IMG/VR virus record: IMGVR_UViG_3300017963_000189
Strand: one strand, 5' to 3'
Source: a virus
Lineage: Duplodnaviria > Caudoviricetes
DNA length: 64,000 bases
Shown: positions 3,183-19,866 of the stretch, in pieces
Layout: every line of letters begins with the position of its first letter
Position numbering within the stretch: the stretch's first letter is position 1
Made by a program: the position numbers and the translations under genes
Notes under the pieces: model-generated
Seen by the model: the letters and a program-made list of their open reading frames with translations, nothing else
Told to the model about the DNA's origin: nothing
Database searches by the model: none

Positions 3183-3263
3183 TAGACGAAATTAAAAAAC
3201 ACATATAAAGAATTATACTATTTTGCTAAAGGAAAGTTCCCTAATCGGTAGGTATTTTATTAA

Positions 3264-3842: not shown

Positions 3843-3863
3843 ATTTCTCTCCAATCTTTTAAT

Positions 3864-3895
3864 AAAAAACCCATTCAATATTGAATGGGCTTTTT
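3864..3895 (-). terminator. intrinsic terminator (probably bidirectional)
   Basis: CCCATTCAA-TA-TTGAATGGG stem with A/T runs on both sides. Confidence 0.8.
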
Positions 3896-3904
3896 AATTT
3901 TTTA

Positions 3905-4276
3905 TTAGAACCAACGCATCAACGAAATCCGGCGATTGGCAGATTCCTTGTGACCTACAAAACGAGTTGTATGACCACCATCAAAACGTCTCTTTAAAGA
4001 CATTTTTTCGAAACCACTAATCATAGCAGCAAGAGTGAATAACTTTTTTAGTGTCGCCTTACGTCTTTCAATACGACCGGGATCAAGAATGGAAACAATA
4101 TCTTCCAACATCTTGACGTTGGCTTCGGCGTTCCGGCGACCACACTCAGGACAATTATATGCTTTCGCACGTCCTACCATTACACCTATTGCGAAATGTT
4201 CGCCCTTTTCTATGCTAAAGGGAACGGTCACTTTATGACCACATTTGTATTCTACATCAACCATTGTTTTTGACAT
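3905..4276 (-). CDS. early hypothetical protein with putative Zn-binding motif
   Basis: CGH...CPEC motif; directly downstream of the sigma70-type promoter at 4309-4337. Confidence 0.7.
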   Translation of the reverse strand: MSKTMVDVEYKCGHKVTVPFSIEKGEHFAIGVMVGRAKAYNCPECGRRNAEANVKMLEDIVSILDPGRIERRKATLKKLFTLAAMISGFEKMSLKRRFDGGHTTRFVGHKESANRRISLMRWF

Positions 4277-4308
4277 CTTATAACCTCTTTCTTTATTTAC
4301 GTTACTTA

Positions 4309-4337
4309 AATATACGAAATAAAAGCATTCTTGTCAA
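4309..4337 (-). promoter_or_regulatory. sigma70-type early promoter
   Basis: TTGACA-N17-TATATT preceded by an A-rich AAAAACAG element. Confidence 0.85.
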
Positions 4338-4354
4338 CTGTTTTTTTACTTTTT

Positions 4355-4558
4355 TTATCGCTGACCAAATCTTTTATCATCTATCCACATAACTAAAGTA
4401 TCTTCCGTAGGATATAACATAACCTTTAATCCCGCATCCATCACTTTATCAATAATCGCTGTTCGTTTGCGTTTCGTGTATTCAAATTCTTCTTGATGTT
4501 TATATCCAAGAACGTGTTCCCAATTCGAATACCAATACGCTACCATAATTTTTTTCAT
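4355..4558 (-). CDS. small early hypothetical protein
   Basis: 67 aa; overlaps the stop of the upstream ORF. Confidence 0.7.
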   Translation of the reverse strand: MKKIMVAYWYSNWEHVLGYKHQEEFEYTKRKRTAIIDKVMDAGLKVMLYPTEDTLVMWIDDKRFGQR

Positions 4559-4776
4559 GATTCTCTCCTATCAATATTCCATACCAAACCGGATAAAGTG
4601 TTCGAAGAATCCCAATAATGAAATCCACCACCTTTAACCGTCCACCAGGGATAAGTCATACCGGGTTGTTTATTGATCCAATATTTCTTACCATTTAGAT
4701 TATACTCATAACGACCACCGCGGTGGCGAATAAGTTCACCTTTGTATTCATAGTCACGAATATATTTTTTCATCAA
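4555..4776 (-). CDS. small early hypothetical protein
   Basis: 73 aa, aromatic-rich; coupled overlaps on both sides. Confidence 0.7.
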   Translation of the reverse strand: MMKKYIRDYEYKGELIRHRGGRYEYNLNGKKYWINKQPGMTYPWWTVKGGGFHYWDSSNTLSGLVWNIDRRES

Positions 4777-5039
4777 CTGTACCTCGCTACTAATTTACCA
4801 TTGTAATAAACTTCGCGGGTAAAAAGAATCGGTGTCCAACCCAATTCTTTGCGACGCGCGTCAGCGTGAGCAATCTTCCACGCTTTTGTGAAAAGAGTAT
4901 TAGTAACAACTTCAAAGCCACTATTATACTTGTGACCACCTGGTGCAAAAGTATCAGCTTCTGCCCATTGAATCTTGACAGTCCAAGTACCACGAACTGA
5001 AAACTTTACATCTTTACTTTTGAAATCGTAACGAAACAT
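4773..5039 (-). CDS. small early hypothetical protein
   Basis: 88 aa; AAGGAG RBS; follows the promoter at 5078-5106. Confidence 0.75.
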   Translation of the reverse strand: MFRYDFKSKDVKFSVRGTWTVKIQWAEADTFAPGGHKYNSGFEVVTNTLFTKAWKIAHADARRKELGWTPILFTREVYYNGKLVARYS

Positions 5040-5077
5040 TTTTAACTCCTTTAGTTGTTATCTCAATTAACTACTAT

Positions 5078-5106
5078 AATATACGAAATTCAGATGTATT
5101 TGTCAA
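5078..5106 (-). promoter_or_regulatory. sigma70-type early promoter
   Basis: TTGACA-N17-TATATT with upstream AAAAACCAGAAAACAG. Confidence 0.88.
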
Positions 5107-5134
5107 CTGTTTTCTGGTTTTTCTGGTAAATTTT

Positions 5135-5527
5135 TTATAGGGAAAATCGTAAACTTACGGTGTAACCGCTTCGTTGTAACGTGTTGATGTTTAATATGAC
5201 GGGCGTCCATGATATGATGTTATATACAATTAAAGCTAATCTTCGTTGTCCTACCGATGATGTAAAATTCTTTATTACCATTATTCCGAATGCAGATATG
5301 ATCACTTTCGTGGCGAATAACTGTGTCATACTGGGATGCGAGCCGTATAAAGGATTTACCTCTTTCATCCCATATGTATTTATCGCATGATTTGTTAAGC
5401 CGTAATCTAATACCTGCGCTATTACAAAAGTGGACGCTAACGTATAATCTACGGGCGTCCACTCCAATGAATCTTGACCAAAAATACAAATTGGTATCAA
5501 TAAGAATATTATTAAACGGTGTGCCAT
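5135..5527 (-). CDS. membrane protein, DUF5658-like
   Basis: N-terminal hydrophobic stretch, LDYGLT...GMKEVNP motif and two further hydrophobic helices. Confidence 0.6.
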   Translation of the reverse strand: MAHRLIIFLLIPICIFGQDSLEWTPVDYTLASTFVIAQVLDYGLTNHAINTYGMKEVNPLYGSHPSMTQLFATKVIISAFGIMVIKNFTSSVGQRRLALIVYNIISWTPVILNINTLQRSGYTVSLRFSL

Positions 5528-6468
5528 TCTCTAATCATCCTCTTTACTAATTCTTGTACTTCATTGTATCTCGGACGTTTCGGTAACGCGGTATACTCAA
5601 CAGCATCATGAATCTTAGCTTCAAGTTCCTCAGCGTAATCCAAAACGTATTTCATTTCCCACTTTCCTAACTTCACATCCAAAATAGTTTGACGATAACG
5701 TAAAGGAAATTCGAGGCGTCCGGTGGACAATAATTCTTTTCCCTCTAACATCAATCGAACTAAATGTGATGCAAATTTAGTGTCATATCCATGAGAAGTT
5801 AACAAATCTTTCCTATTGGTAGCTTTAGACAATCTTTCATCAATCATCTTCTTTACTTTCCTCAACATGAAATGTCTTTGGAAATTTAAGTCACCAATAA
5901 GAATGTTGTCGCCTTTAACACTCATAAATGGAAGTTTCTTGTCAAGAATCTCAACTAACAATTTCTTTCCATCTTCAGGAGATTTAATAAATCCATACAA
6001 CCAATCTTGAGCATTCTCAAGGGAATGATAATTGTCAGTGCGAATCACCATCTTGTGTTTTTGACTAAAAGCATATCCAAGAAATTTTTCCTTTAATCCA
6101 CGATGCGGGAACAAATGAGCGTTCCTCAAAAGTTCCTTTCCCCAAAAGTTACTGTAAACTAAGTTTGCTTCGTTAACAAACATTTGTTCCAAAATATTCG
6201 GGTTATTATCCATCGCCAGACGAACAAACTTTCTCAACTCATAAATCACCATATCAACGGCGTTTTCGTCGTTCTTTCCATCGTCCTTTTTAGACTTGAT
6301 ACTCAAATCAACTTCGTCGGCACGTTCGAATCCAAATACCATGTCCTCACTCGGCATGAAAACTCCACTGTAATCAGTGTCACTGGTTGGAGTTGCAGTT
6401 CCATACAACCTTGACCCAACCATATATTCTAAAATCTTATTTTCTTTCGCAACTTCTCTCGCGTTCAT
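5512..6468 (-). CDS. RlaP-like nucleotidyltransferase (Pol beta superfamily)
   Basis: VGSRLYGTATPTSDTDYSGVF (GS...DxD), NPNILE and GYDTKFASHLVRL motifs. Confidence 0.85.
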   Translation of the reverse strand: MNAREVAKENKILEYMVGSRLYGTATPTSDTDYSGVFMPSEDMVFGFERADEVDLSIKSKKDDGKNDENAVDMVIYELRKFVRLAMDNNPNILEQMFVNEANLVYSNFWGKELLRNAHLFPHRGLKEKFLGYAFSQKHKMVIRTDNYHSLENAQDWLYGFIKSPEDGKKLLVEILDKKLPFMSVKGDNILIGDLNFQRHFMLRKVKKMIDERLSKATNRKDLLTSHGYDTKFASHLVRLMLEGKELLSTGRLEFPLRYRQTILDVKLGKWEMKYVLDYAEELEAKIHDAVEYTALPKRPRYNEVQELVKRMIREWHTV

Positions 6469-6653
6469 TTCTTTTCCTTATTCTTAAACTGAAAATGATA
6501 TTCATCTTCACCTTTATCAATCGTATCTATAATCCTTGATAAAAATTGAATGGGAGCAGTAGTTCCACCGGCCCAAGCAAGATTATAAACCGTTACTTCA
6601 CTACGAATATGTTGATATACATCGTCGTCAATTAATAAAGTAATTTTTTTCAA
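6465..6653 (-). CDS. small hypothetical protein (possible ribbon-helix-helix-like N-terminus)
   Basis: TTG start with GGAG RBS behind the promoter at 6678-6706; starts MKKITLLIDDDVYQHI. Confidence 0.65.
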   Translation of the reverse strand: MKKITLLIDDDVYQHIRSEVTVYNLAWAGGTTAPIQFLSRIIDTIDKGEDEYHFQFKNKEKK

Positions 6654-6677
6654 TTAAAACTCCATTTCTTTGATATA

Positions 6678-6706
6678 AAGTTACGAAATAAAAATGTATT
6701 TGTCAA
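6678..6706 (-). promoter_or_regulatory. sigma70-type early promoter
   Basis: TTGACA-N17-TAACTT; spacer and upstream AAAACAG resemble the other copies. Confidence 0.8.
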
Positions 6707-6721
6707 CTGTTTTCTGATAAA

Positions 6722-7015
6722 TTATGAAGATAATGACGTTTTTTCAAATACTCTCCAATTATCACCATCAAAGATTGTTATAACATAATGATAATGTGGC
6801 GTTTTCTTCATATTACAATAACATTCATCCTGCCACTCCCGACCACCATTAATCTTTTTATATTCTAATGATAAGATTGTGTGAACTAAACCAAACGCAC
6901 TTATTGGATTTAAATGTTCAATAATTTCTGGCTCAAGATTTGTCCTACTCCTTATTAATTCTTTCGCCTTTTCATACTTTCTTTTTTCTTTTCCTAATAC
7001 TTTTCTCACTACCAT
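6722..7015 (-). CDS. hypothetical protein
   Basis: 97 aa; GGAGGGG RBS. Confidence 0.7.
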   Translation of the reverse strand: MVVRKVLGKEKRKYEKAKELIRSRTNLEPEIIEHLNPISAFGLVHTILSLEYKKINGGREWQDECYCNMKKTPHYHYVITIFDGDNWRVFEKTSLSS

Positions 7016-7074
7016 ATCCCCTCCGAAAAGTTGGTATGATTTTTGTACAATTATATGGTATAAAAACCATTCAA

Positions 7075-7082
7075 TATAAATA
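7075..7082 (-). promoter_or_regulatory. TATTTATA promoter-like motif
   Basis: Exact copy in the divergent intergenic region, 60 nt upstream of 6722..7015. Confidence 0.5.
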
Positions 7083-7095
7083 GGAGAATAAAAAA

Positions 7096-7788
7096 ATGAG
7101 TATCAAACTATTGTTTCTTATTGTGATAAGTCTACTCTTATCCTCTTGTTACACACACTTTCGTTACGTCTATACCGAAGAACCTGTAGACGAAGTTTAC
7201 ATTTATGATGTCAACTATGTTTACACTAATCTTTGGTATGACGATTTCTACTGGCGTTACGATGTCTCTAATTACTATTGTACATTTGGTTTATATTATT
7301 ATTCGCCAGGGTACTATGGCTACCCTTACCACTATAAATATAAACCATACTATTATCATAAACGCCCGTATTATAAACGCCATTGGAAAAAACGCCGTCA
7401 TAATGTTGATAAAAACCCACGTTATAGACCAAAACGACACTTATTGATGGGAAAAACCAACATTAAAAAATCTCAAAAAAATGTCCTGCTAAACCGTAAA
7501 AAATTCAAAAAAAGAAAGGTAATAGGACAAAAATCGAGACAGAATGTCCAGATAAAAAATCGTATCACGACAAAATCTCGTCAAAATGTCGAAATACGTA
7601 AAAAACGACAAAATAAACGTAATTATCACGACACACAAAAACGTGTCCACCGAACACCCTCGTTCAAAAAACAAGTCCAAAAAACGAGAAAAAATACCCA
7701 CGTTCAAAAACGTAATAATTCGGCTTTCAAATCAAAAATTAATAAAAAATCTCAAAGAGCAAATGTTAAAAGAAAAGGGCGAAAATAA
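7096..7788 (+). CDS. predicted lipoprotein with Tyr-rich core and Lys/Arg-rich repetitive tail
   Basis: AGGAGA RBS; signal peptide ending in lipobox LSS-C; the only convincing plus-strand gene; its stop lies in a bidirectional terminator. Confidence 0.8.
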   Translation: MSIKLLFLIVISLLLSSCYTHFRYVYTEEPVDEVYIYDVNYVYTNLWYDDFYWRYDVSNYYCTFGLYYYSPGYYGYPYHYKYKPYYYHKRPYYKRHWKKRRHNVDKNPRYRPKRHLLMGKTNIKKSQKNVLLNRKKFKKRKVIGQKSRQNVQIKNRITTKSRQNVEIRKKRQNKRNYHDTQKRVHRTPSFKKQVQKTRKNTHVQKRNNSAFKSKINKKSQRANVKRKGRK

Positions 7789-7800
7789 TCGCCCTTTTTT
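7773..7800. terminator. bidirectional intrinsic terminator between convergent genes
   Basis: AAAAGGGCGA-AAATAA-TCGCCCTTTT(TT). Confidence 0.85.
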
Positions 7801-7802
7801 AC

Positions 7803-8702
7803 TTATTTTTCTTTATTTTTCGCTAAATATTTCGGCGAATATCTAAGATAACATTGTGTCGCAGGCAAATCTACACTATAACCCTCACTATCTACTTTTA
7901 TAAGTGCTGGTGTTTCTCTCGATGGATTTTTTGTCAATAAATCATTTATACGAGTAGAAATATGTGTCCATGGCTCAGCATCTGGTTCATATTCCATATG
8001 TTTTCTGTTGACTTCACTCAATAAATCTTTGTAGTGAATTTGTCCATATTCTTCAATGGTTTCTTTGATAAGAGAAACTTGAGAATACTCAGATTTATAT
8101 GTACTCGATCTTAATTCAGTTAAATCATTACTCTCAAACCAATTAAAAATACTAGCATTATTATCTAAATGTTTCATGAAAATTTCATGTAATTCTGGAA
8201 ATGTAAAATAAAATGTAGAATATTCTTTTGCAACCACTAAGGCTTTTTCTTTTATAAAAAGTGTTCCGAGTTCTCCAAAATCCAAACGCTCTTTATAAAC
8301 TTCTTTATCAAGAATACTTTTATATATAACAAGTTGTTCTTTATATAGATCACTACCTATTTTTACTTCTATATAAAAAATTCCATTACCATATTTTTTT
8401 GACTTTATACGTAAAACAATATCAAGACGCCTATCATGTATTTCCTCTCCATCAGACGCATAAATAACTTCTTTTTTAGGTTCTTCTCTACTTACACTAT
8501 ATTCTATTTCATCATCCGAAAAATCATATTTTTTAGTCTTTTCACCTATTAGTGTAATTATTTCATCAGCAACCTTTGGATTATTATTAATATACAAACA
8601 AACTCCACCAGTCACTTTAACCTCTTGACCACCACCAACTATATCTATCCAATATTTTTCTTGATCTTCCATCAGTGGATTTCTATTACAACGAATTTTC
8701 AT
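7803..8702 (-). CDS. PD-(D/E)XK superfamily nuclease with possible C-terminal winged-helix domain
   Basis: RRLDIVL...FYIEVKIGS...EQLVIY; directly behind an early promoter. Confidence 0.7.
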   Translation of the reverse strand: MKIRCNRNPLMEDQEKYWIDIVGGGQEVKVTGGVCLYINNNPKVADEIITLIGEKTKKYDFSDDEIEYSVSREEPKKEVIYASDGEEIHDRRLDIVLRIKSKKYGNGIFYIEVKIGSDLYKEQLVIYKSILDKEVYKERLDFGELGTLFIKEKALVVAKEYSTFYFTFPELHEIFMKHLDNNASIFNWFESNDLTELRSSTYKSEYSQVSLIKETIEEYGQIHYKDLLSEVNRKHMEYEPDAEPWTHISTRINDLLTKNPSRETPALIKVDSEGYSVDLPATQCYLRYSPKYLAKNKEK

Positions 8703-8732
8703 TATATAACCTTTCTTTATTTGTCTATTACT

Positions 8733-8761
8733 AATATACGAAATTTCAGAGTAAATGTCAA
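8733..8761 (-). promoter_or_regulatory. sigma70-type early promoter
   Basis: TTGACA-N17-TATATT with upstream AAAAAAACAG. Confidence 0.88.
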
Positions 8762-8773
8762 CTGTTTTTTTAA

Positions 8774-9469
8774 TTATTTTGACTTTAGAATAACTATAAC
8801 TCGTCCAGTAGAACTTTCAATTATAACTACTTCATGAGTTTTCTCAAATTTTTTCTTCCAATCAATTAATACTTCAGTATGTCCAGGATCTGCTGCAAAT
8901 GTTTCGTGTTTTGGAGTTGGATATGTGAACACACAATTTTTACATACTCTCATAATTTCATTAGCTGCTTGATCTTTTAGAGCCGGTGGAATGTGTTCGA
9001 TTGTTTCAGTACACCAGCCCCAATCCCATTGATGATCTTCAAAATCTTTCATATCAGTTACATCCATAACATAATCAATTTTTGGACCTGGACGTAAATC
9101 TAATGATTTATATATTTTTGTTCGTTTTCGTAAATTTCCTTTATACGGTACACTTAATCCAGCTCCAATATCAAGTATAGATTTAGCTTTTGTTTCTTCC
9201 GTCAAATGTATAGTTCTTATATAATCACGATTAAATTTATAATTACCATCTTCGCCAAAATATACAGGTGGAACATACCACAAATAATGACGTATCACTT
9301 CCTCGCCATTACGGTGATGATCAACTGCAGTTTCAGGAAAAATATATTCAAATGTTTCTTCCTCTTTTTTCGGCACGTACTTTAAACGTTGTCTTTTTGG
9401 TTCATCAGCTACGTCTTCCGCAGCTTGACTATCAAAAAAATCATTCTTTTTCATTTTCAATCTGCCCAT
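8774..9469 (-). CDS. class I SAM-dependent methyltransferase (Methyltransf_11/23-like) with N-terminal extension
   Basis: ILDIGAG motif I and WCTETIEHI; no DPPY/NPPY or PC motif, so not a classical DNA methyltransferase. Confidence 0.8.
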   Translation of the reverse strand: MGRLKMKKNDFFDSQAAEDVADEPKRQRLKYVPKKEEETFEYIFPETAVDHHRNGEEVIRHYLWYVPPVYFGEDGNYKFNRDYIRTIHLTEETKAKSILDIGAGLSVPYKGNLRKRTKIYKSLDLRPGPKIDYVMDVTDMKDFEDHQWDWGWCTETIEHIPPALKDQAANEIMRVCKNCVFTYPTPKHETFAADPGHTEVLIDWKKKFEKTHEVVIIESSTGRVIVILKSK

Positions 9470-9503
9470 GTAACAACTCCTTTATTTATCTTTTTAAATT
9501 ATT

Positions 9504-9827
9504 TCAACATCCACCCTCAGGATACCTCTTTCCCTCTTTTATTACTCGTATCTCAGAAAGTTCAGGTTTTGGCGGTGGACCTGGACGCGAAGTAGGTACA
9601 TTCGCTTTCCTTCGTCGTTCCCACTCCATAAAACCTTGTATTCCGGTTAACTTACTATCTCCACCACATTCTCTACATAAATAAAAATGACGATTGTATA
9701 TAAGCGCCCAGTGGCCGCGTTCTCGGCGAAATTCTTCACCACATAAACAACACTTGTGCCATATAAATAATGGGAATATACGACCAATACAAGTTATTAT
9801 TTGTGGTTTTTCTACTTGTCTTTTCAT
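9504..9827 (-). CDS. hypothetical protein with CxxC...CxxC
   Basis: CCLCGEE...LCRECGG. Confidence 0.65.
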   Translation of the reverse strand: MKRQVEKPQIITCIGRIFPLFIWHKCCLCGEEFRRERGHWALIYNRHFYLCRECGGDSKLTGIQGFMEWERRRKANVPTSRPGPPPKPELSEIRVIKEGKRYPEGGC

Positions 9828-9830
9828 AAC

Positions 9831-11225
9831 TTACCCCAATCCATCTACTTTCATTTCGTTTATCTTCTCGGCGAGTAACATCTTTTGAACCTTTTCGCCA
9901 CTCTCCATTGATTTCTTTGTTTTCTTTCCCTCATCGGTCTTTTCATCAAAAATTTGTACCTTTCCATTCGACGCATCCATCTTTGACGGAAATACAAATC
10001 CATCCGGACCAAACCTATTCTTTATTACGTGAATACGACCTGTGTGAGCAATCTTGTCTTTCGTCTTTCTTTGAAGTGATATAACAAAGTCGGCGATCAT
10101 TATCTTTCCAAAACTCTCACTTATTCGTCCCGCTTCAATGTGATCATCTTCAAGAGCAGACCTGTTAGCCTGTGACGCTGTCCATAATGGACATTCCATT
10201 TCACCTGCTAAACCTCTTAGATTTTCAAATATACTATCCAACTCAAATCGTTTTTCTGTTGTCTTATATCCACTACTTGTATCTTTTAGTAAGTCGCCGT
10301 AATCAACCACAATCATGTCAGGCTTAAATCCAAATCCCTCACATCGATTTAAATGTGATCTTAATGTTTCTATTCCTGCCGTCTTTGTTGGAAAATACTT
10401 TACAATCAAGTTACCACGTAACTTTTCTATTTGTTTGTATACATCGTCTTGATGAAATTTTATGTCTTGTGACCCAAATCCCGTAATATTAGCATCATAT
10501 CTCAAACCAACATAATCTTCATTTAACTCTAATGTATAATGTACTACATTCTTTCCTTTCGATACTGCGTACGCACCAATGGCGACCAATAACCACGATT
10601 TACCTAATCCTGCTGGAGCAACCACGATTCCCATTTCTCCATTTCCAATACCACCATCAGTTATCTCGTTTAATATATCCCACGGTAATGGAATAACACT
10701 TCTCAATGTGTCAGTTACTCGTCGTTGAAAATATTCTTCCTCTTTGTATATTACACCTATATCTCTCGTTGTTCCTGCTTTCAAGGCTTGATCTATTACA
10801 TTTCTCGCCTCTTCATATTTTTTAATGTTAACCAAATCAACGGCGTCAAATAATGCCAGTTTCATTGTTTGATCTTTAGCAAAATTTAAAAAATTCTCTT
10901 GTACATAATCTAAGTCGGGTGATTCGAAATTCAAATATACATTCTTTAAATTCTCTATTATGGTTTTTTTCATCACCTCTGATGTTACTCTTTTTTCTAA
11001 CTCAGTCTTAAAAACTTCCATTGTTGGCGGTTTTTTGTATTCACCAAAATACTCTTTTATGACCTTTACTAACCATTTATTAGCGTCTGAATCATAATAT
11101 TTTTCTTCCACAATATCATTTATTTGTTCTAAAAATTTGGGATTTTTAACTAATGTAGTTATGGTTTTTGTTTGAAATGAAGTTCCAAATTGAGTTAGAG
11201 TATCAAAATCTTTGTCCATAGGCAA
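9831..11225 (-). CDS. replicative DNA helicase, DnaB / T4 gp41-like
   Basis: Walker A APAGLGKS, HYTLE, IVVDYGD, WTASQANR, KNRFG. Confidence 0.95.
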   Translation of the reverse strand: MPMDKDFDTLTQFGTSFQTKTITTLVKNPKFLEQINDIVEEKYYDSDANKWLVKVIKEYFGEYKKPPTMEVFKTELEKRVTSEVMKKTIIENLKNVYLNFESPDLDYVQENFLNFAKDQTMKLALFDAVDLVNIKKYEEARNVIDQALKAGTTRDIGVIYKEEEYFQRRVTDTLRSVIPLPWDILNEITDGGIGNGEMGIVVAPAGLGKSWLLVAIGAYAVSKGKNVVHYTLELNEDYVGLRYDANITGFGSQDIKFHQDDVYKQIEKLRGNLIVKYFPTKTAGIETLRSHLNRCEGFGFKPDMIVVDYGDLLKDTSSGYKTTEKRFELDSIFENLRGLAGEMECPLWTASQANRSALEDDHIEAGRISESFGKIMIADFVISLQRKTKDKIAHTGRIHVIKNRFGPDGFVFPSKMDASNGKVQIFDEKTDEGKKTKKSMESGEKVQKMLLAEKINEMKVDGLG

Positions 11226-11228
11226 TCA

Positions 11229-12272
11229 CTACTCCTTTGAAGTTTTAGCAAATGTATTTAGTTTATTAAAATTCAGGTTCAACCATGAATCAATGTTTGG
11301 GATGGCACTATAAAGTTTATCTTCCAAGAACAATCTTTTAAGTTGATACCTATTGATTGTACTAACAGGTTCGTCTAAAAGTTCCCTGATTTTAACTTTT
11401 GTTGTACCACTAATTTCTACTTCGCCTAACTTCATTAACTTAAAATTCATCTTTAGTTGTTCTTCGTTTTCCATGATTAATCGGGCGGCTGTGTTCTTTC
11501 CGGGTTGACGATTCGCATACTCCAAAATACTCTCCAATGAAACCTTTTCTTCGTCTAATAATATAGGTAAATGTTTTTGTGCTGTCTTTAATCCTATTCC
11601 CTTTATTCCTGGTATATTATCACTTGAGTCGCCATCTAAAATACGAAAATATATGAGATTCTTTGGCGAAAAATGATAATCTTCCTTGACTGCCTTTTCG
11701 TCGTATAACTTCTTTTTTGTTGGATTCCATACCTTTATCCTATCATCGACAAGTTGTAAAAAATCCTTGTCCGTTGACATTATTACTACTTCCTCTTTCA
11801 ATAACTCCTTTGATACATACGAAATAACATCGTCAGCTTCTATGTTATCATAAATAAACATTTGTAAAGGTAAGTTGTCTAAATAATCTGCTGACCTACT
11901 TATTTGTCTACTCGCTTCGTCAACTTCCTCATCGGGTGTGTGAAAATCGTATGTACGATTTAACCTTACTCGTAAACCTGTTCTATGTGCTTTGTAGTCG
12001 GGATAAATTTTTCGACGGCGAGCTGATCCGCCTTTTCCATCAAATACCACGATACAACGTGTAGGATTTATCGTGCGGATACCAACTGCTATTGTGTTCA
12101 GGAAGCCGACAATACCACCTATATGTGTACCATCGTCATTCATTGCGGGATTTACCGAAAACGCTCTAATGAAATTATTTAAACCATCGATTAATAAAAC
12201 TTTTGAGTTGAGTGATTTGGCGTTTTCGTTTTCTTGTTTAATTTCTTCTAATAGATTATCGATATTAACCAT
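11229..12272 (-). CDS. 5'-3' exonuclease / flap endonuclease (T4 RNase H-like)
   Basis: LIDGLN, VFDG, RRKIYPDYKAHR, EADD, STDKDFLQL, GDSSDNIPGIKGIG. Confidence 0.95.
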   Translation of the reverse strand: MVNIDNLLEEIKQENENAKSLNSKVLLIDGLNNFIRAFSVNPAMNDDGTHIGGIVGFLNTIAVGIRTINPTRCIVVFDGKGGSARRRKIYPDYKAHRTGLRVRLNRTYDFHTPDEEVDEASRQISRSADYLDNLPLQMFIYDNIEADDVISYVSKELLKEEVVIMSTDKDFLQLVDDRIKVWNPTKKKLYDEKAVKEDYHFSPKNLIYFRILDGDSSDNIPGIKGIGLKTAQKHLPILLDEEKVSLESILEYANRQPGKNTAARLIMENEEQLKMNFKLMKLGEVEISGTTKVKIRELLDEPVSTINRYQLKRLFLEDKLYSAIPNIDSWLNLNFNKLNTFAKTSKE

Positions 12273-12288
12273 TTTATTATGTCCTTTA

Positions 12289-12888
12289 TTAGAGTAAAAG
12301 TTTTTTCAAATTTTTATTAAAATGATTGATCAACTTTAAAGAATTTGTCGTATCTCTCCACATAAAATAATGTTCTTCACATCCAGCATACCATTGTGTT
12401 ATTTCTTTTACTCTACATGGATCACGGGTAATATTACCAATAAAAACTGTCCAAAATGGTAAAACATCATTTCCAAGATTACCCTCACTTTTTAATATTT
12501 TTAATAATCCAGGTGTAAAATATTTACATGATCTTTCGTGAGCATTTCCACGACCATCTTGGCGTTTTCCGCCCTCAACCCAACCATCTTGTCGTTTTAC
12601 TTCCACATAAATTGTTTTTTGAGTTTGAGTATTATCAATAGCGTAATCTGGCACGATTCCATGTGTCTCAATCTTTTCTTCTGGAATATAAATTTCTTCT
12701 AATACCTTTTTATCAAGTTCTACATCAACATAAATATTCGTGAATTCTTGCGGACTTTCTCGTATCACAAATTTTGTGTTTTTAAATTCTTGTAAAAAAA
12801 CATTATAAAAATCGTGTTCAGCTATTTTTGCTTTTTTTCCACTATTTTTTTGCCAAGTAGATCTGTTTTTTAATTCTTTTGAGCCCAC
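12289..12888 (-). CDS. munIR: MunI-like type II restriction endonuclease
   Basis: 199 aa, collinear with MunI as recalled: catalytic PD...EVK, EVKRQDGWVEG, recognition motif GRGNAHERSCK, FTPGLL, LPFW, ITRDP, YFMWR. GTG start with AAAGG RBS. Confidence 0.9.
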   Translation of the reverse strand: MGSKELKNRSTWQKNSGKKAKIAEHDFYNVFLQEFKNTKFVIRESPQEFTNIYVDVELDKKVLEEIYIPEEKIETHGIVPDYAIDNTQTQKTIYVEVKRQDGWVEGGKRQDGRGNAHERSCKYFTPGLLKILKSEGNLGNDVLPFWTVFIGNITRDPCRVKEITQWYAGCEEHYFMWRDTTNSLKLINHFNKNLKKLLL

Positions 12889-12898
12889 AAAAACCTTT

Positions 12899-13303
12899 CT
12901 AAGTTGTTTTGTATTTACTCACTATCTTTTGTAAGAAACGAGTTCTGTCGGATAATCTTTTCCAATCATATTCCCAAATAACTTCAATATTGTAACCATT
13001 TTCTTCAGCAGATTTGATTTTCTCTTTATCCTTTTCCCATTTTTCCCAAGCATACCTTTTCTTTACCTTGTCATAAAAATCAGGTGGATAAATGTTTTTG
13101 TTGTAGTGCCACCGATCTCCATTATACTCAATGATTAAATTTAATTCCTTTATGAATATATCATATGGAACGCCATCAAGCATAAATTCATTACGAACCT
13201 TACAGCCGAGTTTTCGAAGTGTCTTAAACACTTCACTGTGACCCTGACTCATTGTCGTTGACCGTCGAACTTTTCTCTTTTTACCACGTTTCTTCTTTTT
13301 CAA
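12899..13303 (-). CDS. DUF559/Vsr-like (very-short-patch family) endonuclease, possibly a free-standing homing endonuclease
   Basis: YDIFIKELNLIIEYNGDRWH...KDKEKIKSAEENGYNIEVIWE; basic N-terminus; TTG start (alternative ATG at Met18). Confidence 0.85.
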   Translation of the reverse strand: MKKKKRGKKRKVRRSTTMSQGHSEVFKTLRKLGCKVRNEFMLDGVPYDIFIKELNLIIEYNGDRWHYNKNIYPPDFYDKVKKRYAWEKWEKDKEKIKSAEENGYNIEVIWEYDWKRLSDRTRFLQKIVSKYKTT

Positions 13304-13305
13304 TA

Positions 13306-13364
13306 TGAATAATCCCGATATGAGTTCTACTATATATAAATAGTGTTCAAATCGGGATTATTCA
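13306..13364 (-). promoter_or_regulatory. 14-bp perfect hairpin sequestering the endonuclease RBS, with a TATTTATA motif (13335-13342) in the loop
   Basis: Arms TGAATAATCCCGAT (13306-13319) and ATCGGGATTATTCA (13351-13364) around a 31-nt loop; no U-tract follows. Confidence 0.7.
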
Positions 13365-13376
13365 CGTTTCTGTTAA

Positions 13377-14519
13377 TTAATCGTCACCAATTATTTCATC
13401 AGTGACTATCATTTCATCCGTACTTAACCCTATGTCCGACTTATCTTTATACTTCATTATTTGAAAATCACAAATCTTGTTGTATAAAAATTCTTTGAAT
13501 TCGGGCTCACTTTCAAGTAATTCGCCCCAATTCTTCGTCTCAAATCGTCTTTCCTCTCCCTTGTGATCAACTATTTTAAATCCAGGGTTGGAACGGGAAA
13601 CTAAATCATTGTCTTTTAAAATCTCTAACCAATTTTCATAGTCATATATACCCCTGTCAAAATAAATGTCAAAGTCGGCGATCCGGTAGGACGGCCCCAT
13701 TCGATTCTTGATTACTTGAGCTCTCGCTTTGATGCCAATTACTTGTTCTTGTGTTCCTATCTTTTGTTTGATTTGACCCATCGCTTTTAACCGGACACGG
13801 ATAGAAGCATGAAACGGCAAACCCTTTCCACCTGAAGTAGTCCAGGGATCACCAAACATTACGCCCATCTTCTGGCGTAACTGATTCGTAAAAATACACA
13901 CAACTCTCTCTTTACCTATCAATCGTGTAATCTTACGAAATGCTGCGGAAACAATTATCGCTTTAGTAGTATTCCAACCCTGCTTCTCATAATCGTTCTC
14001 CATTTCTAATGAAGTTGAAGCAGCTGCTAATGAATCAACTACAATCACTACAAGTTTGTCCTTGTCGGATTCCCTAATAGTTGTAATTATTTGTTCAATA
14101 GTTTGAAATATTTGTTCCACAGTATCAAGTTGGACATATAACATCTTTTCAACATCTACACCAATCGCTTCTAAAAAATCTTTACTTAAAGCATTTTCAG
14201 TGTCAATATAAACACCTACTCCACCTTTCGCCTGAGCACTCGCTATTGAGTGAGCAGCAAGTAATGACTTTCCACTCGATTCTAAACCATTAAATTCTAT
14301 TATACGTCCTGTGGGAAGTCCACCATGCGGGCGGTTAGATATTGCTAAATCTAACATCGAACTTCCGGTTGAAATCCAATCAATCACATCAGTTGGTGTA
14401 TCATCACCAATAAAATGGGCTACCTTTCCATCACTTTTGAATTGTTTGTTCAACACATCCGCTAATGAGTGTACAAGATCGCCCTTTAATTCTTCCTTTT
14501 CAGCTTTCTTTTTCGCCAT
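13377..14519 (-). CDS. uvsX: RecA/UvsX recombinase
   Basis: ISTGS...GGLPTGRIIEFNGLESSGKS, YIDTE, VVDSLAA, FTNQLR, SGGKGLPFHASIR. Confidence 0.96.
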   Translation of the reverse strand: MAKKKAEKEELKGDLVHSLADVLNKQFKSDGKVAHFIGDDTPTDVIDWISTGSSMLDLAISNRPHGGLPTGRIIEFNGLESSGKSLLAAHSIASAQAKGGVGVYIDTENALSKDFLEAIGVDVEKMLYVQLDTVEQIFQTIEQIITTIRESDKDKLVVIVVDSLAAASTSLEMENDYEKQGWNTTKAIIVSAAFRKITRLIGKERVVCIFTNQLRQKMGVMFGDPWTTSGGKGLPFHASIRVRLKAMGQIKQKIGTQEQVIGIKARAQVIKNRMGPSYRIADFDIYFDRGIYDYENWLEILKDNDLVSRSNPGFKIVDHKGEERRFETKNWGELLESEPEFKEFLYNKICDFQIMKYKDKSDIGLSTDEMIVTDEIIGDD

Positions 14520-14534
14520 TTATCCTCTCCAAAA

Positions 14535-14561
14535 TAAAAAATCGGGGAATAAATCCCCGAT
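14535..14561 (-). terminator. intrinsic terminator after ssb
   Basis: ATCGGGGA-N5-TCCCCGAT followed by a U-run on the minus strand. Confidence 0.8.
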
Positions 14562-14567
14562 CATATA

Positions 14568-15368
14568 TTAATTTTCGAACATCTTTTTGAATGCGTCTGC
14601 AGGATTTGCAGCAGGTTTTTCAGCAGTTACTTCCTCTTTTGTTTCCGCAACAGGAGCATCTTGAGTTGTCGTTTCAGTTGTCGTTTCAGTTGTAGTTTCC
14701 TTTTGTTCTTCCGCTGCTTCTTCAGGATTCAAATGTAGTTTCAACGCTTCTTCAAGTTCTTCATATGATTTAAGTTCATACAATTCCTTGATGTCAGGTT
14801 GTTCTTCCGTGATTTTCTTCAATACATCAGGATCTTCCGTGACAGTACTTGGATTTGGTTTAATCCGAACTTTCGGCGTGGCGAATTGTTTACCTTCCTC
14901 TTTCACCGTCCATACAACAATATCACGTCCATTTACAGGATCAGTAATATCACCGTAATCAGGATCAGAGATATGGGAAAGTAAATCTTCATACACAGTT
15001 TTACCGAATCCCCAAAACTTTACACCTTCATGTTCCTTATCACGAACAATAACAGGAGCAAATGTACGAAGTTTAGGCTCTAAAGAACGTCCAAGTTTCC
15101 AACTTTCTTTACTACCCTCTTGTTTAAGTTTTTGGGCGATTTCCATAATCGGATCGCGTTCACCAAATGAAGCTGGAGATAAATAAGTTTTATTATTTAA
15201 CTCGTAATGAAAATACAATTCGATGAAAGGATTTTCAGGATTGAATTTGTAAGGTACGATACGAACCGTTGTTTCTTTCTCAGAAGGTTTCCAAGTAAGA
15301 TTTGATTTTTTGTTGGTTTTCTTTAAGGATTCCAACCGTCCTTTGATTTGTGCTAAGTCTAATGCCAT
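14568..15368 (-). CDS. single-stranded DNA-binding protein, T4 gp32-like
   Basis: VRIVP...PFIELYFHY, SPASFGERDPI, VKFWGFGK, YGDITDPVNGRDI; acidic C-terminal tail. Confidence 0.9.
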   Translation of the reverse strand: MALDLAQIKGRLESLKKTNKKSNLTWKPSEKETTVRIVPYKFNPENPFIELYFHYELNNKTYLSPASFGERDPIMEIAQKLKQEGSKESWKLGRSLEPKLRTFAPVIVRDKEHEGVKFWGFGKTVYEDLLSHISDPDYGDITDPVNGRDIVVWTVKEEGKQFATPKVRIKPNPSTVTEDPDVLKKITEEQPDIKELYELKSYEELEEALKLHLNPEEAAEEQKETTTETTTETTTQDAPVAETKEEVTAEKPAANPADAFKKMFEN

Positions 15369-15414
15369 GATTCATTCTCCTTCTTTAATCATTGATGTTT
15401 AAAAGTTTAAATTA

Positions 15415-15434
15415 CTCAAGCTACACCGCTTGAG
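15415..15434 (-). promoter_or_regulatory. hairpin in the ssb 5' leader
   Basis: CTCAAGC-GGTGTA-GCTTGAG followed by an A/U-rich stretch to the RBS. Confidence 0.5.
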
Positions 15435-15453
15435 ATAACCATTTGTTAAGTTG

Positions 15454-15478
15454 TATAAATATTATACTCTTATAAATA
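15454..15478 (-). promoter_or_regulatory. tandem TATTTATA motifs upstream of ssb
   Basis: Copies at 15454-15461 and 15471-15478. Confidence 0.6.
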
Positions 15479-15536
15479 TGTAAAGTTCCATTATTTTTGA
15501 ACTTTTTTCTTGACTTTTTCACTTTTTTTTCGTAAA

Positions 15537-15833
15537 TTACGGCCAATCAATCCTCATTTCGTTGACCTTTGTATTTACTTCGCCAATAGGTTTTTCCTTT
15601 GGTACTAAATCATAATGTTTTAACATGATCCTCAATACCATCATAGCTATCTCTCTGTCCTTGTCCTTTTCTTCCTCGTCTAACTCACCATAAGGCTTAA
15701 ACATATCCTCTTTCCATCGTTTTAACCTCTCAGGATTTATTGTCTCAGTTTTCGCTATGTCTTTCGCCCATGACATCCATTGCGCATGTTCTAAATCAGA
15801 TAATTCCTCTAATACTTTTTTCTTAATCTTCAT
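15537..15833 (-). CDS. hypothetical protein
   Basis: 98 aa; stop/start overlap with the upstream gene. Confidence 0.7.
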   Translation of the reverse strand: MKIKKKVLEELSDLEHAQWMSWAKDIAKTETINPERLKRWKEDMFKPYGELDEEEKDKDREIAMMVLRIMLKHYDLVPKEKPIGEVNTKVNEMRIDWP

Positions 15834-16225
15834 TATACGTCTCTTATATCAAAAATTTTAGTTTGTATTTTCTTTAATCCATTTTCATCAGTTACTAATA
15901 ATGTGTTTCTAAACTTTGACCAATCTACCTCAAATCTCGGATCAACCTTTCCATCATTTAATAAACTTACTACATGATTTAACGCATTTATAGTGTATAA
16001 TGTGTTTGTTTGTTTCTTACGATGTATTGAAATTGTACTTCTTAGGGCTTCGCCAGATGGATCAAACTCTACATTATATGTACATATCAACTCTCGTTTG
16101 TTATCCAAGTTTTCTAATACATATATCCTACCAAAGGCGATTGTATATGTGTCCAAAATTTCTTCAATCGTTTCTTCTAATTTGTTCTTCCGTGTAAACG
16201 TACACAACAGTTGTGTTTTACTCAT
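15833..16225 (-). CDS. conserved-type phage hypothetical protein
   Basis: TQLLCTF...CTYN...HRKKQTNTLYTINALN, a pattern I recall from large myovirus replication regions. Confidence 0.75.
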   Translation of the reverse strand: MSKTQLLCTFTRKNKLEETIEEILDTYTIAFGRIYVLENLDNKRELICTYNVEFDPSGEALRSTISIHRKKQTNTLYTINALNHVVSLLNDGKVDPRFEVDWSKFRNTLLVTDENGLKKIQTKIFDIRDV

Positions 16226-16227
16226 AA

Positions 16228-18066
16228 CTATTTCTCCTTGTTTTTCCGTACTCGATGTCTAAATAATAATTTAGGTGTACTTTTCGTCTCCGTTTTTAAA
16301 TCTATTTGTATATATTGATTCTTTTGACCATCGATTTCAATAATTAACTTTGTACCATCAACATTTACTTTTAATGGTTGTTGTGGTTCACAATAATGTT
16401 CAGGTGGATATAAATCTACTTGAGCTGTCTTTTTATTTATTACACTTGTATGTACATCGTTACCACAACCGTGTACTTCTTTCCAAATGTTTTCAAGTTG
16501 ATCTTGACCCTCAGGTGTCTTGGCGAGTTGTTCTAATGATTCTCCCATTTTTTTGGTATACCAAGTTTTTAACTTAGCTTTCCTTTTCATAATCTCTTGA
16601 GCATCCATCGTGTCTACATCCCACTTGTTTTCTTTCCATACTTTCGCCCAATCTTCGTCAAGTTTCTTTCCTGCTTCACCACCAATATAATGTGACCCTG
16701 CATTTCCCGTTCCCGAATTTTTCATTGTTATATTCGATGGATCGGTATAAATCTTAGCAGATATTTTCATCATTTTATCTTTTCCATCTTTATCTTTATA
16801 CATAACAACTAAATCCGTCGGATCAACTTTTTCATCAATACCGTATAAATCCATAAGTTTTTTTGCACCAATACCACCAGTATTTCTAGCATCAGTTATT
16901 GTAGCTCCTTCAGGAAGTGATCCACGAATTTTATCGGCTAACTCTTTGTTTGTCTCATTTGACGCTTTAAGATTTCCACCAAGTTTTTTATATTCTTCAG
17001 TATTATGATCATGTAATTCTTTAGCTTCTTTATAGTTTTGTGAATCTTCAGGTATCAAATCCAACACTACTCCAGATTCATTATATTTTCCGGACATATC
17101 AGCTAATGCTCTATCTGCAGACGAACCACGAATCGGCACCGATATTCCCTCTTTTTTTATCATTTCGTTCATTAATCTTGTTACTACAGTTCCACTATCT
17201 CCGGTCATAGCTTTATAATGAACACCATATTCAGGACCCGCTTGTGGAGTTAAATAAATCTTTTTACCACCAGCATGACCTTCAATAATAATGTAATCGG
17301 CTAATCTATTAAGATTTTCTACTCTTTCTTCGTATGTCTTAGCATTTATAAATCCATCCCATGAGTTAGAAAGAATGTCTATCCTTTTCTTTGTTTCCGG
17401 GTCAGCATCTTTTGTTTTGTCTCTTATCTTATCGAGTTTCGCCTTTTCTTTTTCATAAGCCTTACCCTTGATCACGGGCTCAACTGGAGTTCCCTTTGGT
17501 TCTTCCTCTTTTTCTACGGGCTCGCCCTTTTCGGCTTTGGCGATGTCCTCCGGTGACGCGTCCTTTTTGACTAAAACCTGACCGCGTTTTGGATCGTGTG
17601 ACTTAACCGTGTAAATGTTTCCTGTCTCTTTCTTCTTTACTATGTCATCCTCGTTTATCTCGTCCTCGTCCTCGGTGTCCACATCTAAATAATCTAACTC
17701 TAACATTATTTCTTCGGTGTAAGGTGTGTCTCGTTCTTCCTCGTCTCTATCATCCATTGGTAACTTGTCTTGATCCGCATGATCTTGTGGTTGTATTGGA
17801 TTGATATAAGGTTGCGGTTCTGCTTGATCGGAATGAACGCCATCAAAATCTGTATAAATACCAACTTGATCTATTTTATTTGGATTCTTTTTCACAGGGA
17901 TTCTGAGATTGTTCATTGTCTTTTCTATTAATTCATATGACATCCCTTTTTCTTCAAAAATCTCTCGTAATATTATTAAATGATCGTTGTTTTTCAAATC
18001 AGGCAAACCATTTGATACTCGATATGATAATTCTTTAATAACTTCCTCTATAAACTCTTTGTTCAT
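16228..18066 (-). CDS. large protein, probably virion-associated, with possible nuclease-like C-terminal domain
   Basis: N-terminal ELSYRVSNGLPDLKN segment, acidic linker, C-terminal PTDLVV...ISAK; preceded by a TATTTATA motif and GGAG RBS. Confidence 0.6.
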   Translation of the reverse strand: MNKEFIEEVIKELSYRVSNGLPDLKNNDHLIILREIFEEKGMSYELIEKTMNNLRIPVKKNPNKIDQVGIYTDFDGVHSDQAEPQPYINPIQPQDHADQDKLPMDDRDEEERDTPYTEEIMLELDYLDVDTEDEDEINEDDIVKKKETGNIYTVKSHDPKRGQVLVKKDASPEDIAKAEKGEPVEKEEEPKGTPVEPVIKGKAYEKEKAKLDKIRDKTKDADPETKKRIDILSNSWDGFINAKTYEERVENLNRLADYIIIEGHAGGKKIYLTPQAGPEYGVHYKAMTGDSGTVVTRLMNEMIKKEGISVPIRGSSADRALADMSGKYNESGVVLDLIPEDSQNYKEAKELHDHNTEEYKKLGGNLKASNETNKELADKIRGSLPEGATITDARNTGGIGAKKLMDLYGIDEKVDPTDLVVMYKDKDGKDKMMKISAKIYTDPSNITMKNSGTGNAGSHYIGGEAGKKLDEDWAKVWKENKWDVDTMDAQEIMKRKAKLKTWYTKKMGESLEQLAKTPEGQDQLENIWKEVHGCGNDVHTSVINKKTAQVDLYPPEHYCEPQQPLKVNVDGTKLIIEIDGQKNQYIQIDLKTETKSTPKLLFRHRVRKNKEK

Positions 18067-18095
18067 ATGTTTTCTCCATTACATTATTATCCATA

Positions 18096-18103
18096 TATAA
18101 ATA
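18096..18103 (-). promoter_or_regulatory. TATTTATA promoter-like motif
   Basis: Intergenic, 30 nt upstream of 16228..18066. Confidence 0.6.
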
Positions 18104-18121
18104 TAAGTATGTCTAATATTT

Positions 18122-19471
18122 CTATTCCGAATTGAATGTTTTTGTTATATCTTGTAAGTCTTGATAATCATATCCAAAATAAGCTTTTGTTGGAAATACT
18201 TTTAATATATCTCGTAATCCATTTATCATTTCTTTTCCATCTTCTTGACTTATGTCAAATAAAAAAGAATCATATACATACATCACTAACTTTGATTTAT
18301 AGTTTTTCAAATACTCATTTATCTTTTGAATTAAAATCATATTGGCTTCCGTTTCCATACATTGAATAAAATAGTTGAATATTTTTGTGGGGCTCGGATC
18401 AACAATATGTTTCAAATATATTCTTCTTTGAGATAATGGAGTTTCATAATATCCATCTTTTTTTATTTGTCGCCAAATACCAAAATAAAAATCCTGTACC
18501 TTGGCGAAAAATGGAACAGCTTCCCTGACTTCCTTTGGTACTCCACCATATAAAAGTTGAAAATTCATCGTCTTAGAATCATTGTATTCTTCCTCAGTTA
18601 ATTCCTCTTTTCCAAAATAATATCGACCTAAATATGTGTGTATATTCTTTTCGCCAAACTCGTAGCCGATTAACCTGGCGATAAGATTCAAATGATATGA
18701 ATCAAAATCAAATAATAAAAAGGCGTCATTGGTTGGAATGAATGACTTTCTATGTCCTTTATCCTTGTCTATGGCAGCAAAATTCAACCCACCATACTTA
18801 TTCGATGGGCGACCGGTAGATGTGTAAAAGTTGTACTCACTATATATCTTGTTGTCACTCGATATGTACTTTTTTATTTTTTCGCCGTAATACTTCTCTA
18901 ATGTGTCCACATTTACACCTATTCCATTCCTCTCTACATCATACATCGTTTCTAAATTCTTCGTGTAAAAATCATATCCACTTGGAATTAAATGATTCAT
19001 TCTTATAGAAATAATTTTTCCGGCATTATCTTGATGTAATTCAACGTGTTTTGGTAATGGAATGTAACTATTTATATTTTGTTCGTGACTATATTTTCTG
19101 TTGTAATAAAGGTGTGTCTGAGTGTCCAGATTCCACACGGGCGTATTGTTATGATACAGATAGTAAAACATATCCATATCTTTTATGTCCTTGTTTTTTA
19201 TAAAACTTAGAAGTCGTTTTTGGTTGATAGTCCATATTATGCTTGGTTGAATCTCGTCTAATATCGATATATCCATATTAACGGTGTCGGTGTGATTAAA
19301 TCCAATAACATATTCGTCGCCAGAATCAACTACCCTAACATAAATCAATGATAATTCATTGTCACAATAATGTTTTGTTGGATTTACTAAAGTAGGTAAA
19401 ATAACTATTTCTTTGTTCTCGATTACCGATAAAAATACCTTGTAATCGTCCATTGTTTCTATAATATTCAT
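18122..19471 (-). CDS. polA: divergent, short family A DNA polymerase
   Basis: TSTGRPS, motif A LFDFDSYHL, motif B SKTMNFQLLYGG, NYFIQ, motif C VYDSFLFD; only 449 aa. Confidence 0.85.
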   Translation of the reverse strand: MNIIETMDDYKVFLSVIENKEIVILPTLVNPTKHYCDNELSLIYVRVVDSGDEYVIGFNHTDTVNMDISILDEIQPSIIWTINQKRLLSFIKNKDIKDMDMFYYLYHNNTPVWNLDTQTHLYYNRKYSHEQNINSYIPLPKHVELHQDNAGKIISIRMNHLIPSGYDFYTKNLETMYDVERNGIGVNVDTLEKYYGEKIKKYISSDNKIYSEYNFYTSTGRPSNKYGGLNFAAIDKDKGHRKSFIPTNDAFLLFDFDSYHLNLIARLIGYEFGEKNIHTYLGRYYFGKEELTEEEYNDSKTMNFQLLYGGVPKEVREAVPFFAKVQDFYFGIWRQIKKDGYYETPLSQRRIYLKHIVDPSPTKIFNYFIQCMETEANMILIQKINEYLKNYKSKLVMYVYDSFLFDISQEDGKEMINGLRDILKVFPTKAYFGYDYQDLQDITKTFNSE

Positions 19472-19491
19472 TCATAACCTTTGGTAAGATG

Positions 19492-19866
19492 TTAACCTTG
19501 CCAGAATTGTAATAAATTTCCCAAATACAACGAAATTCCTGGCATATTTTTTTCTTGAAAAATAAGTGTATTACTATTTTTACGCTGTATTTCGTCAAAA
19601 GTTCCATTAATTACCCAGCGTAACCGAATCGCTGAGTAATAACTTGACGCGGATGTAGGAAATATACCTGTTAACTTCAAATACTCGTCCTTGTCTATCT
19701 CTATAATTTGAGCTTTTTCATTTACTCGTGGCTTGGCGAAATATCGTTCAATATATCCAATACGATAATCTTCAGCATCAGGTTGTGGAAGATGTTGTTT
19801 TGGATATTTGCGTATTGTCGCTGATTCGCCGGACGCTCTACTATATTCTTTACGTAATTGGTTCAT
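19492..19866 (-). CDS. hypothetical protein (baseplate region)
   Basis: ORF track gives 19953; the ATG at 19866 (MNQLRKEY) minimises overlap with the hub gene. Confidence 0.65.
   Translation of the reverse strand: MNQLRKEYSRASGESATIRKYPKQHLPQPDAEDYRIGYIERYFAKPRVNEKAQIIEIDKDEYLKLTGIFPTSASSYYSAIRLRWVINGTFDEIQRKNSNTLIFQEKNMPGISLYLGNLLQFWQG

Follow-up and report, generated by a model that had tools for sequence, protein, structure and literature searches.

A lone MunI-family restriction endonuclease gene in a jumbo phage with no CAATTG in the DNA examined

Restriction enzymes are bacterial defences that need a partner methylase, and a virus in which the cutting half is found without the protecting half raises the question of how its own DNA is spared. 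Such a case is presented by the 64,000-nt stretch of phage DNA analysed here (the window), in which a preliminary description had seen a MunI-like gene but neither a DNA methyltransferase nor a single CAATTG, and had proposed that self and non-self are told apart by avoidance of the site rather than by methylation. The window belongs to a 168,383-bp record, which represents a fragment (about half) of a jumbo phage genome of roughly 330 kb, and the completeness estimate of 78% for this record is too high. An ENA contig of 309,378 bp holds the same MunI gene and extends past the high end of the record; pieces of contig were stitched without conflict into 244,994 bp (hereafter the 245 kb), which is about 74% of the estimated genome. 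The sequence of the MunI region recurs without change in runs of two studies; one is a sediment and the other a seawater metagenome, and the DNA may come from either. Beyond the record the DNA encodes first baseplate proteins, then a TonB-dependent receptor, PnuC, a NadR-like protein, Ro60/TROVE and Thg1, and also a T4-type RNA ligase, a PAS protein and an HSP20.

The protein matches the PF11407 RestrictionMunI profile with residues 7-192 on profile positions 6-191 of 193 (E 2.1e-71, 240.1 bits with a cut-off of 25), and the gene was matched again when the genome was searched with this profile (239.6 bits). The MunI chain 1d02_A aligns with it end to end (E 7.3e-62, query 1-198 on chain 1-201). 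The catalytic PD..ExK is retained, P80-D81, E96 and K98 of the phage protein aligning with D83, E98 and K100 of MunI, the E-V-K and GRGNAHERS segments are kept, and the RGNAHER recognition element at residues 113-119 is identical in the two proteins. The crystallized chain is a D83A mutant, and the phage protein has the aspartate at that position. When 23 family members are aligned, no invariant column is broken in the phage protein; among these columns are R113, N115, A116, H117 and the catalytic D81, E96 and K98, which are invariant across all 23, while G114, E118 and R119 are nearly invariant. The earlier reading of a 199-aa MunI-like protein with both motifs intact is thereby confirmed by the profile match and by the alignments with the MunI chain and with the family. 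Membership in the MunI family with CAATTG specificity is as well supported as sequence alone allows, and the gene shows no sign of decay; the homologue is presumably expressed and enzymatically active. Its GC3 of 0.17, compared with 0.28-0.33 in the core neighbours, points to a recent import from a more AT-rich source. Two adjacent genes on the minus strand at 7803-9469, also absent from near relatives, have a similar GC3 of 0.14-0.17. A protein search of a phage collection with the homologue gave a single partial match, on an unannotated gut contig, and a DNA search of the same collection with the 5.6-kb region around the gene gave no match.

Table 1. Positions in the 64,000-nt window of the genes and segments discussed in the text.
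Feature	Position	Strand	Remarks
204-aa open reading frame	3264-3878	-	Just upstream of the class II ribonucleotide reductase gene; no Pfam match
299-aa weak PD-(D/E)XK (PDDEXK_4) nuclease candidate	7803-8702	-	Lineage-specific
231-aa class-I SAM methyltransferase, Methyltransf_11 type	8774-9469	-	2.8 kb from the MunI gene
DnaB-type helicase gene	9831..11225	-	PF03796; same strand and same gene run as the MunI gene
5'-3' exonuclease gene	11229..12272	-	PF02739 and PF01367; immediately downstream of the MunI gene
Segment of ~0.6 kb absent from the nearest relatives	12273..12898		MunI reading frame with short flanks; alignment with L011 and tblastn synteny
Orphan MunI-family type IIP restriction endonuclease gene	12289..12888	-	199 aa; GTG start; predicted specificity CAATTG
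Shine-Dalgarno-like AAAGG	12894..12898	-	5 nt upstream of the MunI GTG start; read from the sequence
Vsr/DUF559-like (MTES_1575) PD-(D/E)XK nuclease gene	12899..13303	-	Immediately upstream of the MunI gene
RecA-type recombinase gene	13377..14519	-	PF00154; first of the gene run
CAATTG-free DNA, proposed self-protection	1..64000		Extends over all of the 245 kb examined

The location of the gene (Table 1) was described before as the core replication operon, between uvsX and the 5'-3' exonuclease gene. The operon and the adjoining exonuclease gene stand, but the Vsr/DUF559-like gene lies between the MunI gene and the recombinase gene, and the recombinase is of the RecA type. A T4-like UvsX label was rejected for it, as the protein belongs to the RecA_N type and has its closest named phage counterpart, at 49%, in Microcystis phage Mel-JY01. 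The Vsr/DUF559-like assignment comes from PF18741 (E 4.8e-6, below the cut-off) and TIGR00632 vsr (E 7e-4). Its orthologues, at 72-75%, were found in the near relatives L011, L091, L092 and L093, and none was found in more distant relatives. The gap between this gene and the MunI start codon is 10 nt. A terminator scan detected a terminator-like hairpin at 14540-14562, upstream of the recombinase gene, and none between the recombinase and exonuclease genes. A class II ribonucleotide reductase gene lies 9 kb from the MunI gene. Between recA and the DUF559-like gene, at 13301-13364, there is a perfect inverted repeat of about 14 bp with an AT-rich loop, which might control how the two nuclease genes are transcribed or translated.

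In L011, L092 and L093 the start of the exonuclease gene overlaps the stop of the DUF559-like gene, and the MunI reading frame is therefore a clean insertion of about 0.6 kb. The same slot is occupied differently in L091 (3974-5266), by an N6_N4 DNA methyltransferase with an SPPY motif (PF01555, E 1.7e-37) followed by an Endonuclease VII/HNH protein. The junction of DUF559-like and exonuclease genes is therefore a variable site at which nuclease and methylase cassettes are swapped. A viral scan with the 612-aa neighbour protein found nothing.

Other genes in the phage resemble nucleases. A second DUF559-like gene (269 aa, a faint PF04480 match) is located outside the window at G000:C1:166903-167712 among tail and baseplate genes, so small Vsr-like nucleases occur more than once in this genome. 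The 204-aa open reading frame has weak Atlas leads to T4 endonuclease IV-like, DpnI-like and intron-associated PD-(D/E)XK nucleases, and may be a second DNA-degrading enzyme. Viral scans with this protein and with the 299-aa candidate, made to link them with a depleted word, found no relatives.

Cellular homologues of MunI usually sit in a three-gene unit consisting of an HTH controller, the endonuclease and a convergent MT-A70 methylase. Among 80 loci from species genomes an MT-A70 gene was present within 4 kb in 78 and a controller (C protein) gene in 59. No complete operon was found in the phage, as neither the cognate MT-A70 methylase nor the HTH controller was detected within the 245 kb. 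The methylase families searched for were MT-A70, EcoRI-type, D12, N6_N4, N6_Mtase, C5 and Dam, and the profiles PF13651, PF02086, PF01555, PF02384, PF00145, PF05869 and PF05063 had no match in the 168-kb record; for MT-A70 (PF05063) this was so even at E <= 10. Furthermore, tblastn with two cognate MT-A70 proteins, the controller protein and an N6_N4 methylase as queries found nothing in the 245 kb, no [DNS]PP[YFW] motif occurs there in stop-to-stop open frames of at least 120 aa, and the precomputed Pfam labels of genes on the walked contig include no DNA methylase. The earlier statement that the window contains no DNA methyltransferase is accordingly upheld, and within the reach of these searches none was found in the 245 kb either. 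The 231-aa class-I methyltransferase was weighed as a candidate for a hidden cognate methylase. It belongs to the Methyltransf_11 type, as do the viral class-I methyltransferases that make up its nearest Atlas clusters, and it lacks a DPPY-like motif. From its sequence it is unlikely to be a DNA amino-methylase.

The absence of CAATTG from the window, noted earlier from a reading of the letters, is exact. No copy was counted, compared with 30.6 +/- 5.3 in dinucleotide shuffles, and the genome-wide count that had been proposed extends this result: there are none in the 168,383-bp record (52.9 expected by a zero-order model and 30.2 by Markov-4) and none in the 244,994 bp (77.1 expected from composition and 47.5 by Markov-4). 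Since the count is zero even against the Markov-4 expectation, what has been lost is the hexamer as such, and the scarcity of shorter words within it is not the reason. In the 168-kb record only four hexamers, CAATTG being one, show the strongest depletion relative to Markov-4 (zero copies with an expectation of 15 or more). The caveat raised at the outset, that other palindromes are missing too, was also correct. Seven palindromic hexamers are absent over the 245 kb, namely three that contain CTAG, the rare GCGCGC, and ACATGT, CAATTG and GATATC. CTAG is itself almost absent, with 9 copies in the 168-kb record against 193-500 expected. GATATC has no copy over the 245 kb where 60-77 are expected, a lineage-specific loss, as relatives carry this word about as densely as expected and it persists in the near ones; ACATGT likewise has none of 35-77 expected and is already low in relatives. 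No EcoRV-family gene that could account for the loss of GATATC was found at E <= 10, and no phage enzyme matching GATATC or ACATGT was recognised. In the opposite direction, ACCGGT and CTGCAG are 2-4 fold over-represented in the phage (245 kb, window included), and CTGCAG is about 3-fold over-represented in relatives (L012-L170, G003-G005).

Relatives were gathered by scans with the RecA-type recombinase, from which 80 viral and 80 metagenomic loci with 54-86% identity were obtained; most are of marine origin, and contigs of 359 and 374 kb occur among them. The order SSB-like, RecA, exonuclease, DnaB is conserved in all 160 loci, and the MunI gene is present in none. The preliminary description had named equal depletion in relatives without the gene as a result that would speak against it, and the relatives show the reverse, as CAATTG is over-represented about 1.6-fold (317 sites with 191 expected, and 439 with 278 expected). 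The whole records of three relatives contain 133, 78 and 42 sites in 171, 105 and 81 kb, respectively, and no PF11407 match. Overall, the density of CAATTG in relatives is 0.5-0.8 sites per kb. The nearest relatives form two lineages (RecA about 86%, nucleotide identity about 76-78%), in which CAATTG is found at roughly the expected density (L092, 4 sites with 5.1 expected; L091, 1 with 1.8; L095, 2 with 1.0). At the positions orthologous to these sites the phage has one or two site-breaking substitutions. The sites are scattered across the whole relative genome, and the one nearest to the insertion point in L092 lies inside recA, at a distance of about 1.3 kb. Many palindromes are already under-represented when one looks at more distant relatives.

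Six MunI homologues were recovered when viral contigs were scanned by alignment. Four of these adjoin an MT-A70 gene, and there CAATTG is normal in number (observed/expected 4/6.9, 4/3.9, 8/4.9 and 3/4.8); one of the six is truncated at a contig end. The homologue at L173 has no methylase nearby and no CAATTG in its 20-kb locus. This locus is part of G001, a record of 202,882 bp (91% complete, 49% GC) that has almost no genes in common with the present phage. In all of G001 there is no CAATTG where about 50 are expected, and none of the four methylase families MT-A70, N6_N4, D12 and C5 was found in it. Its endonuclease retains all MunI motifs and is 63% identical to bacterial homologues and 53% to the present one; being closer to the bacterial proteins, the gene was acquired independently. 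It sits among the genes for thymidylate synthase, DHFR, RtcB and dUTPase, so that both orphan MunI genes are located in modules of DNA or nucleotide metabolism. Of the 64 palindromic hexamers, each with an expectation of about 50, G001 is also without 45, and the purge there is clearly general and not due to the MunI enzyme alone; it has 0 GATC and 1 GTAC.

Taken together, the absence of CAATTG, the failure to find a methylase in the 245 kb and the undepleted relatives make site avoidance the best reading, and self-protection by this means in place of methylation is well supported. The most plausible account of the whole, which we favour with some reserve, is that the phage encodes an intact lone enzyme specific for CAATTG, has a genome without sites, and cuts other, unmethylated DNA. 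On this account a MunI-type gene would have been acquired alone, without controller protein or MT-A70 methylase, as a single-gene insertion into the variable nuclease/methylase slot of the replication-recombination operon of a marine jumbo phage of about 330 kb. A genome without CAATTG allows the enzyme to be made during infection without the phage DNA being cut, and any unmethylated DNA that carries the site in the same cell would be attacked. The target could be the host chromosome, feeding the neighbouring exonuclease and the genes of nucleotide metabolism, or it could be co-infecting relatives with their 0.5-0.8 sites per kb; either identification is inferential. The position beside exonuclease and RecA and 9 kb from the class II ribonucleotide reductase gene, like that of the G001 gene in a nucleotide-metabolism block, is an association compatible with nucleotide salvage from cut DNA.

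The earlier interpretation is supported in part. The zero count, the failure to find a methylase in the 245 kb, the undepleted relatives and G001 all speak for avoidance as the means of discrimination; that the phage's own enzyme caused the purge is a separate and less probable proposition. Acquisition of an active enzyme by a genome with about 100 sites of its own would be lethal, and for this reason the clearing of the sites most likely preceded the arrival of the lone gene, which was tolerated afterwards. The clearing agent may have been host restriction-modification systems or a complete cassette carried transiently. The absence of GATATC and ACATGT is just as complete although no enzyme that matches them was recognised, which makes host restriction a sufficient cause of site loss, and clearing by host restriction probably came first. 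A host with a CAATTG system would have methylated DNA and could not be the target; what the enzyme could usefully attack would in that case be rival phages rich in sites, or strains of the host in which the system is missing. One may speculate further that some large phages use one or several orphan nucleases in an "inverse restriction", knowing self by words erased from their genomes, with CAATTG paired to the MunI homologue, with the 299-aa and 204-aa proteins as candidate nucleases for GATATC and ACATGT and with G001 as an extreme case, but this generalisation we regard as rather doubtful.

The favoured account has to be weighed against three others. The gene could be a passenger, in that host systems specific for CAATTG, GATATC and ACATGT purged the phage and a restriction enzyme gene, taken up from a host of this kind or from some other element, does no harm in a site-free genome and is of no use to the phage, being silent, inactive or neutral. 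Several palindromes are indeed purged with no matching phage enzyme recognised, G001 shows how far such a purge can go (45 of 64 palindromic hexamers), many palindromes are already under-represented in more distant relatives, and the low GC3 suggests a recent arrival. We consider a passenger unlikely nonetheless, as all catalytic, recognition and family-invariant residues are intact, the gene has its own ribosome-binding site in an essential operon with no terminator, and its sequence is the same in the sediment and the seawater runs, though either may be the source. Moreover, only 3 of about 60 palindromic hexamers without CTAG are fully absent over the 245 kb, and the chance that an inert gene would match one of them is about 5%. 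Protection might instead be hidden, by a methylase or another DNA modification encoded in the remaining ~85 kb or by an unrecognised enzyme such as that at 8774-9469, with the absence of CAATTG being unrelated. In favour of this, the DNA examined is about 74% of the genome, and the uncharacterised class-I methyltransferase is confined to this lineage, with a GC3 as low as that of the MunI gene. A protected genome, however, would have no need to be free of CAATTG where 47-77 sites are expected, the 231-aa protein belongs to the Methyltransf_11 type and has no DPPY-like motif, and no methylase of the seven families was found in the 168-kb record; hidden protection is very improbable.

The remaining account is that of a selfish nuclease cassette, which would cut CAATTG-bearing relatives in mixed infections, be copied together with flanking markers by recombinational repair, and persist like a free-standing homing endonuclease. 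The clean insertion of a single gene between conserved genes and beside another small nuclease gene, the different cassette in the same slot of L091 (N6_N4 methylase with Endonuclease VII/HNH), the RecA and exonuclease encoded right beside the gene, and the richness of relatives in CAATTG all speak for it. Against this, the gene is missing from all 160 related loci, so that no spread is visible; in L092 the insertion point is separated from the nearest CAATTG by 1.3 kb; and an enzyme with a six-base site would break the recipient genome into pieces instead of nicking it at a single homing site. Spread of this kind is accordingly improbable in our judgement.

If the lone enzyme is active, as the favoured account requires, the phage would discriminate self from non-self without methylation, which suggests a phage route to the destruction of host DNA or of rival phages. 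It would be a reverse use of restriction, in which the virus keeps only the cutting half and is protected because its genome offers nothing to cut. Words that phage genomes lack could then not always be taken as traces left by restriction in the host. Since the commercial enzymes MunI and MfeI have the specificity predicted here, the case is directly testable.

Among the systems similar to the one described here is the type IIP restriction-modification system MunI/MfeI itself, which consists of a C protein, R.MunI and the MT-A70-type M.MunI and to whose endonuclease the phage enzyme is a full-length relative with identical PD..ExK and RGNAHER elements. The phage differs in that neither the methylase nor the controller that accompany 78/80 and 59/80 of the cellular homologues was found in the 245 kb, in that the gene is located in the replication operon of a lytic phage, and in that self would be spared by a missing site and not by m6A. 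A gene-sized insertion between conserved genes that is absent from close relatives is also what homing endonucleases display; their patchy spread is not seen, the MunI gene being found in 0 of 160 loci and 0 of three whole relative records.

Endonucleases II and IV of T4 (denA, denB) degrade host DNA and spare the phage DNA, which is marked as self by hydroxymethylcytosine. The proposal made here resembles this in that a phage nuclease would destroy non-phage DNA early and feed nucleotide salvage, and in that self and non-self are read from a property of the phage DNA. The mark in T4 is chemical, whereas here it would be the absence of a 6-bp word, combined with a classical restriction enzyme. 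Chloroviruses also degrade host DNA with restriction-modification enzymes, but they encode the cognate methylase and have their own genome methylated. The direction of a site-specific type II endonuclease at host DNA, proposed for the present phage, would be common to both, and the difference is that no cognate methylase was found in the 245 kb.

The literature searches turned up no paper in which an orphan type II enzyme of a phage is connected with the loss of that enzyme's site from the phage genome. Solitary restriction enzymes were counted in phages by Oliveira et al. 2014 (12 in 831 genomes; PMC4176335) and surveyed in prokaryotes by Ershova et al. 2012 (PMC3488263), and those in phages are similar to the present one in being type II genes on a phage genome without an adjacent methylase. 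In the passages searched, PMC4176335 and PMC3488263 count such genes, and no link to the site content of the carrier or comparison with gene-free relatives was found there. Avoidance of restriction sites by phages is a known defence against host enzymes (Rusinov et al. 2018, PMC6286503), and a term search of its text gave nothing on enzymes encoded by viruses. The complete loss of palindromic sites from a phage genome is shared with the avoidance described in that paper, and what sets the present phage apart from it is that the avoided site is also the predicted target of an enzyme which the phage itself encodes.
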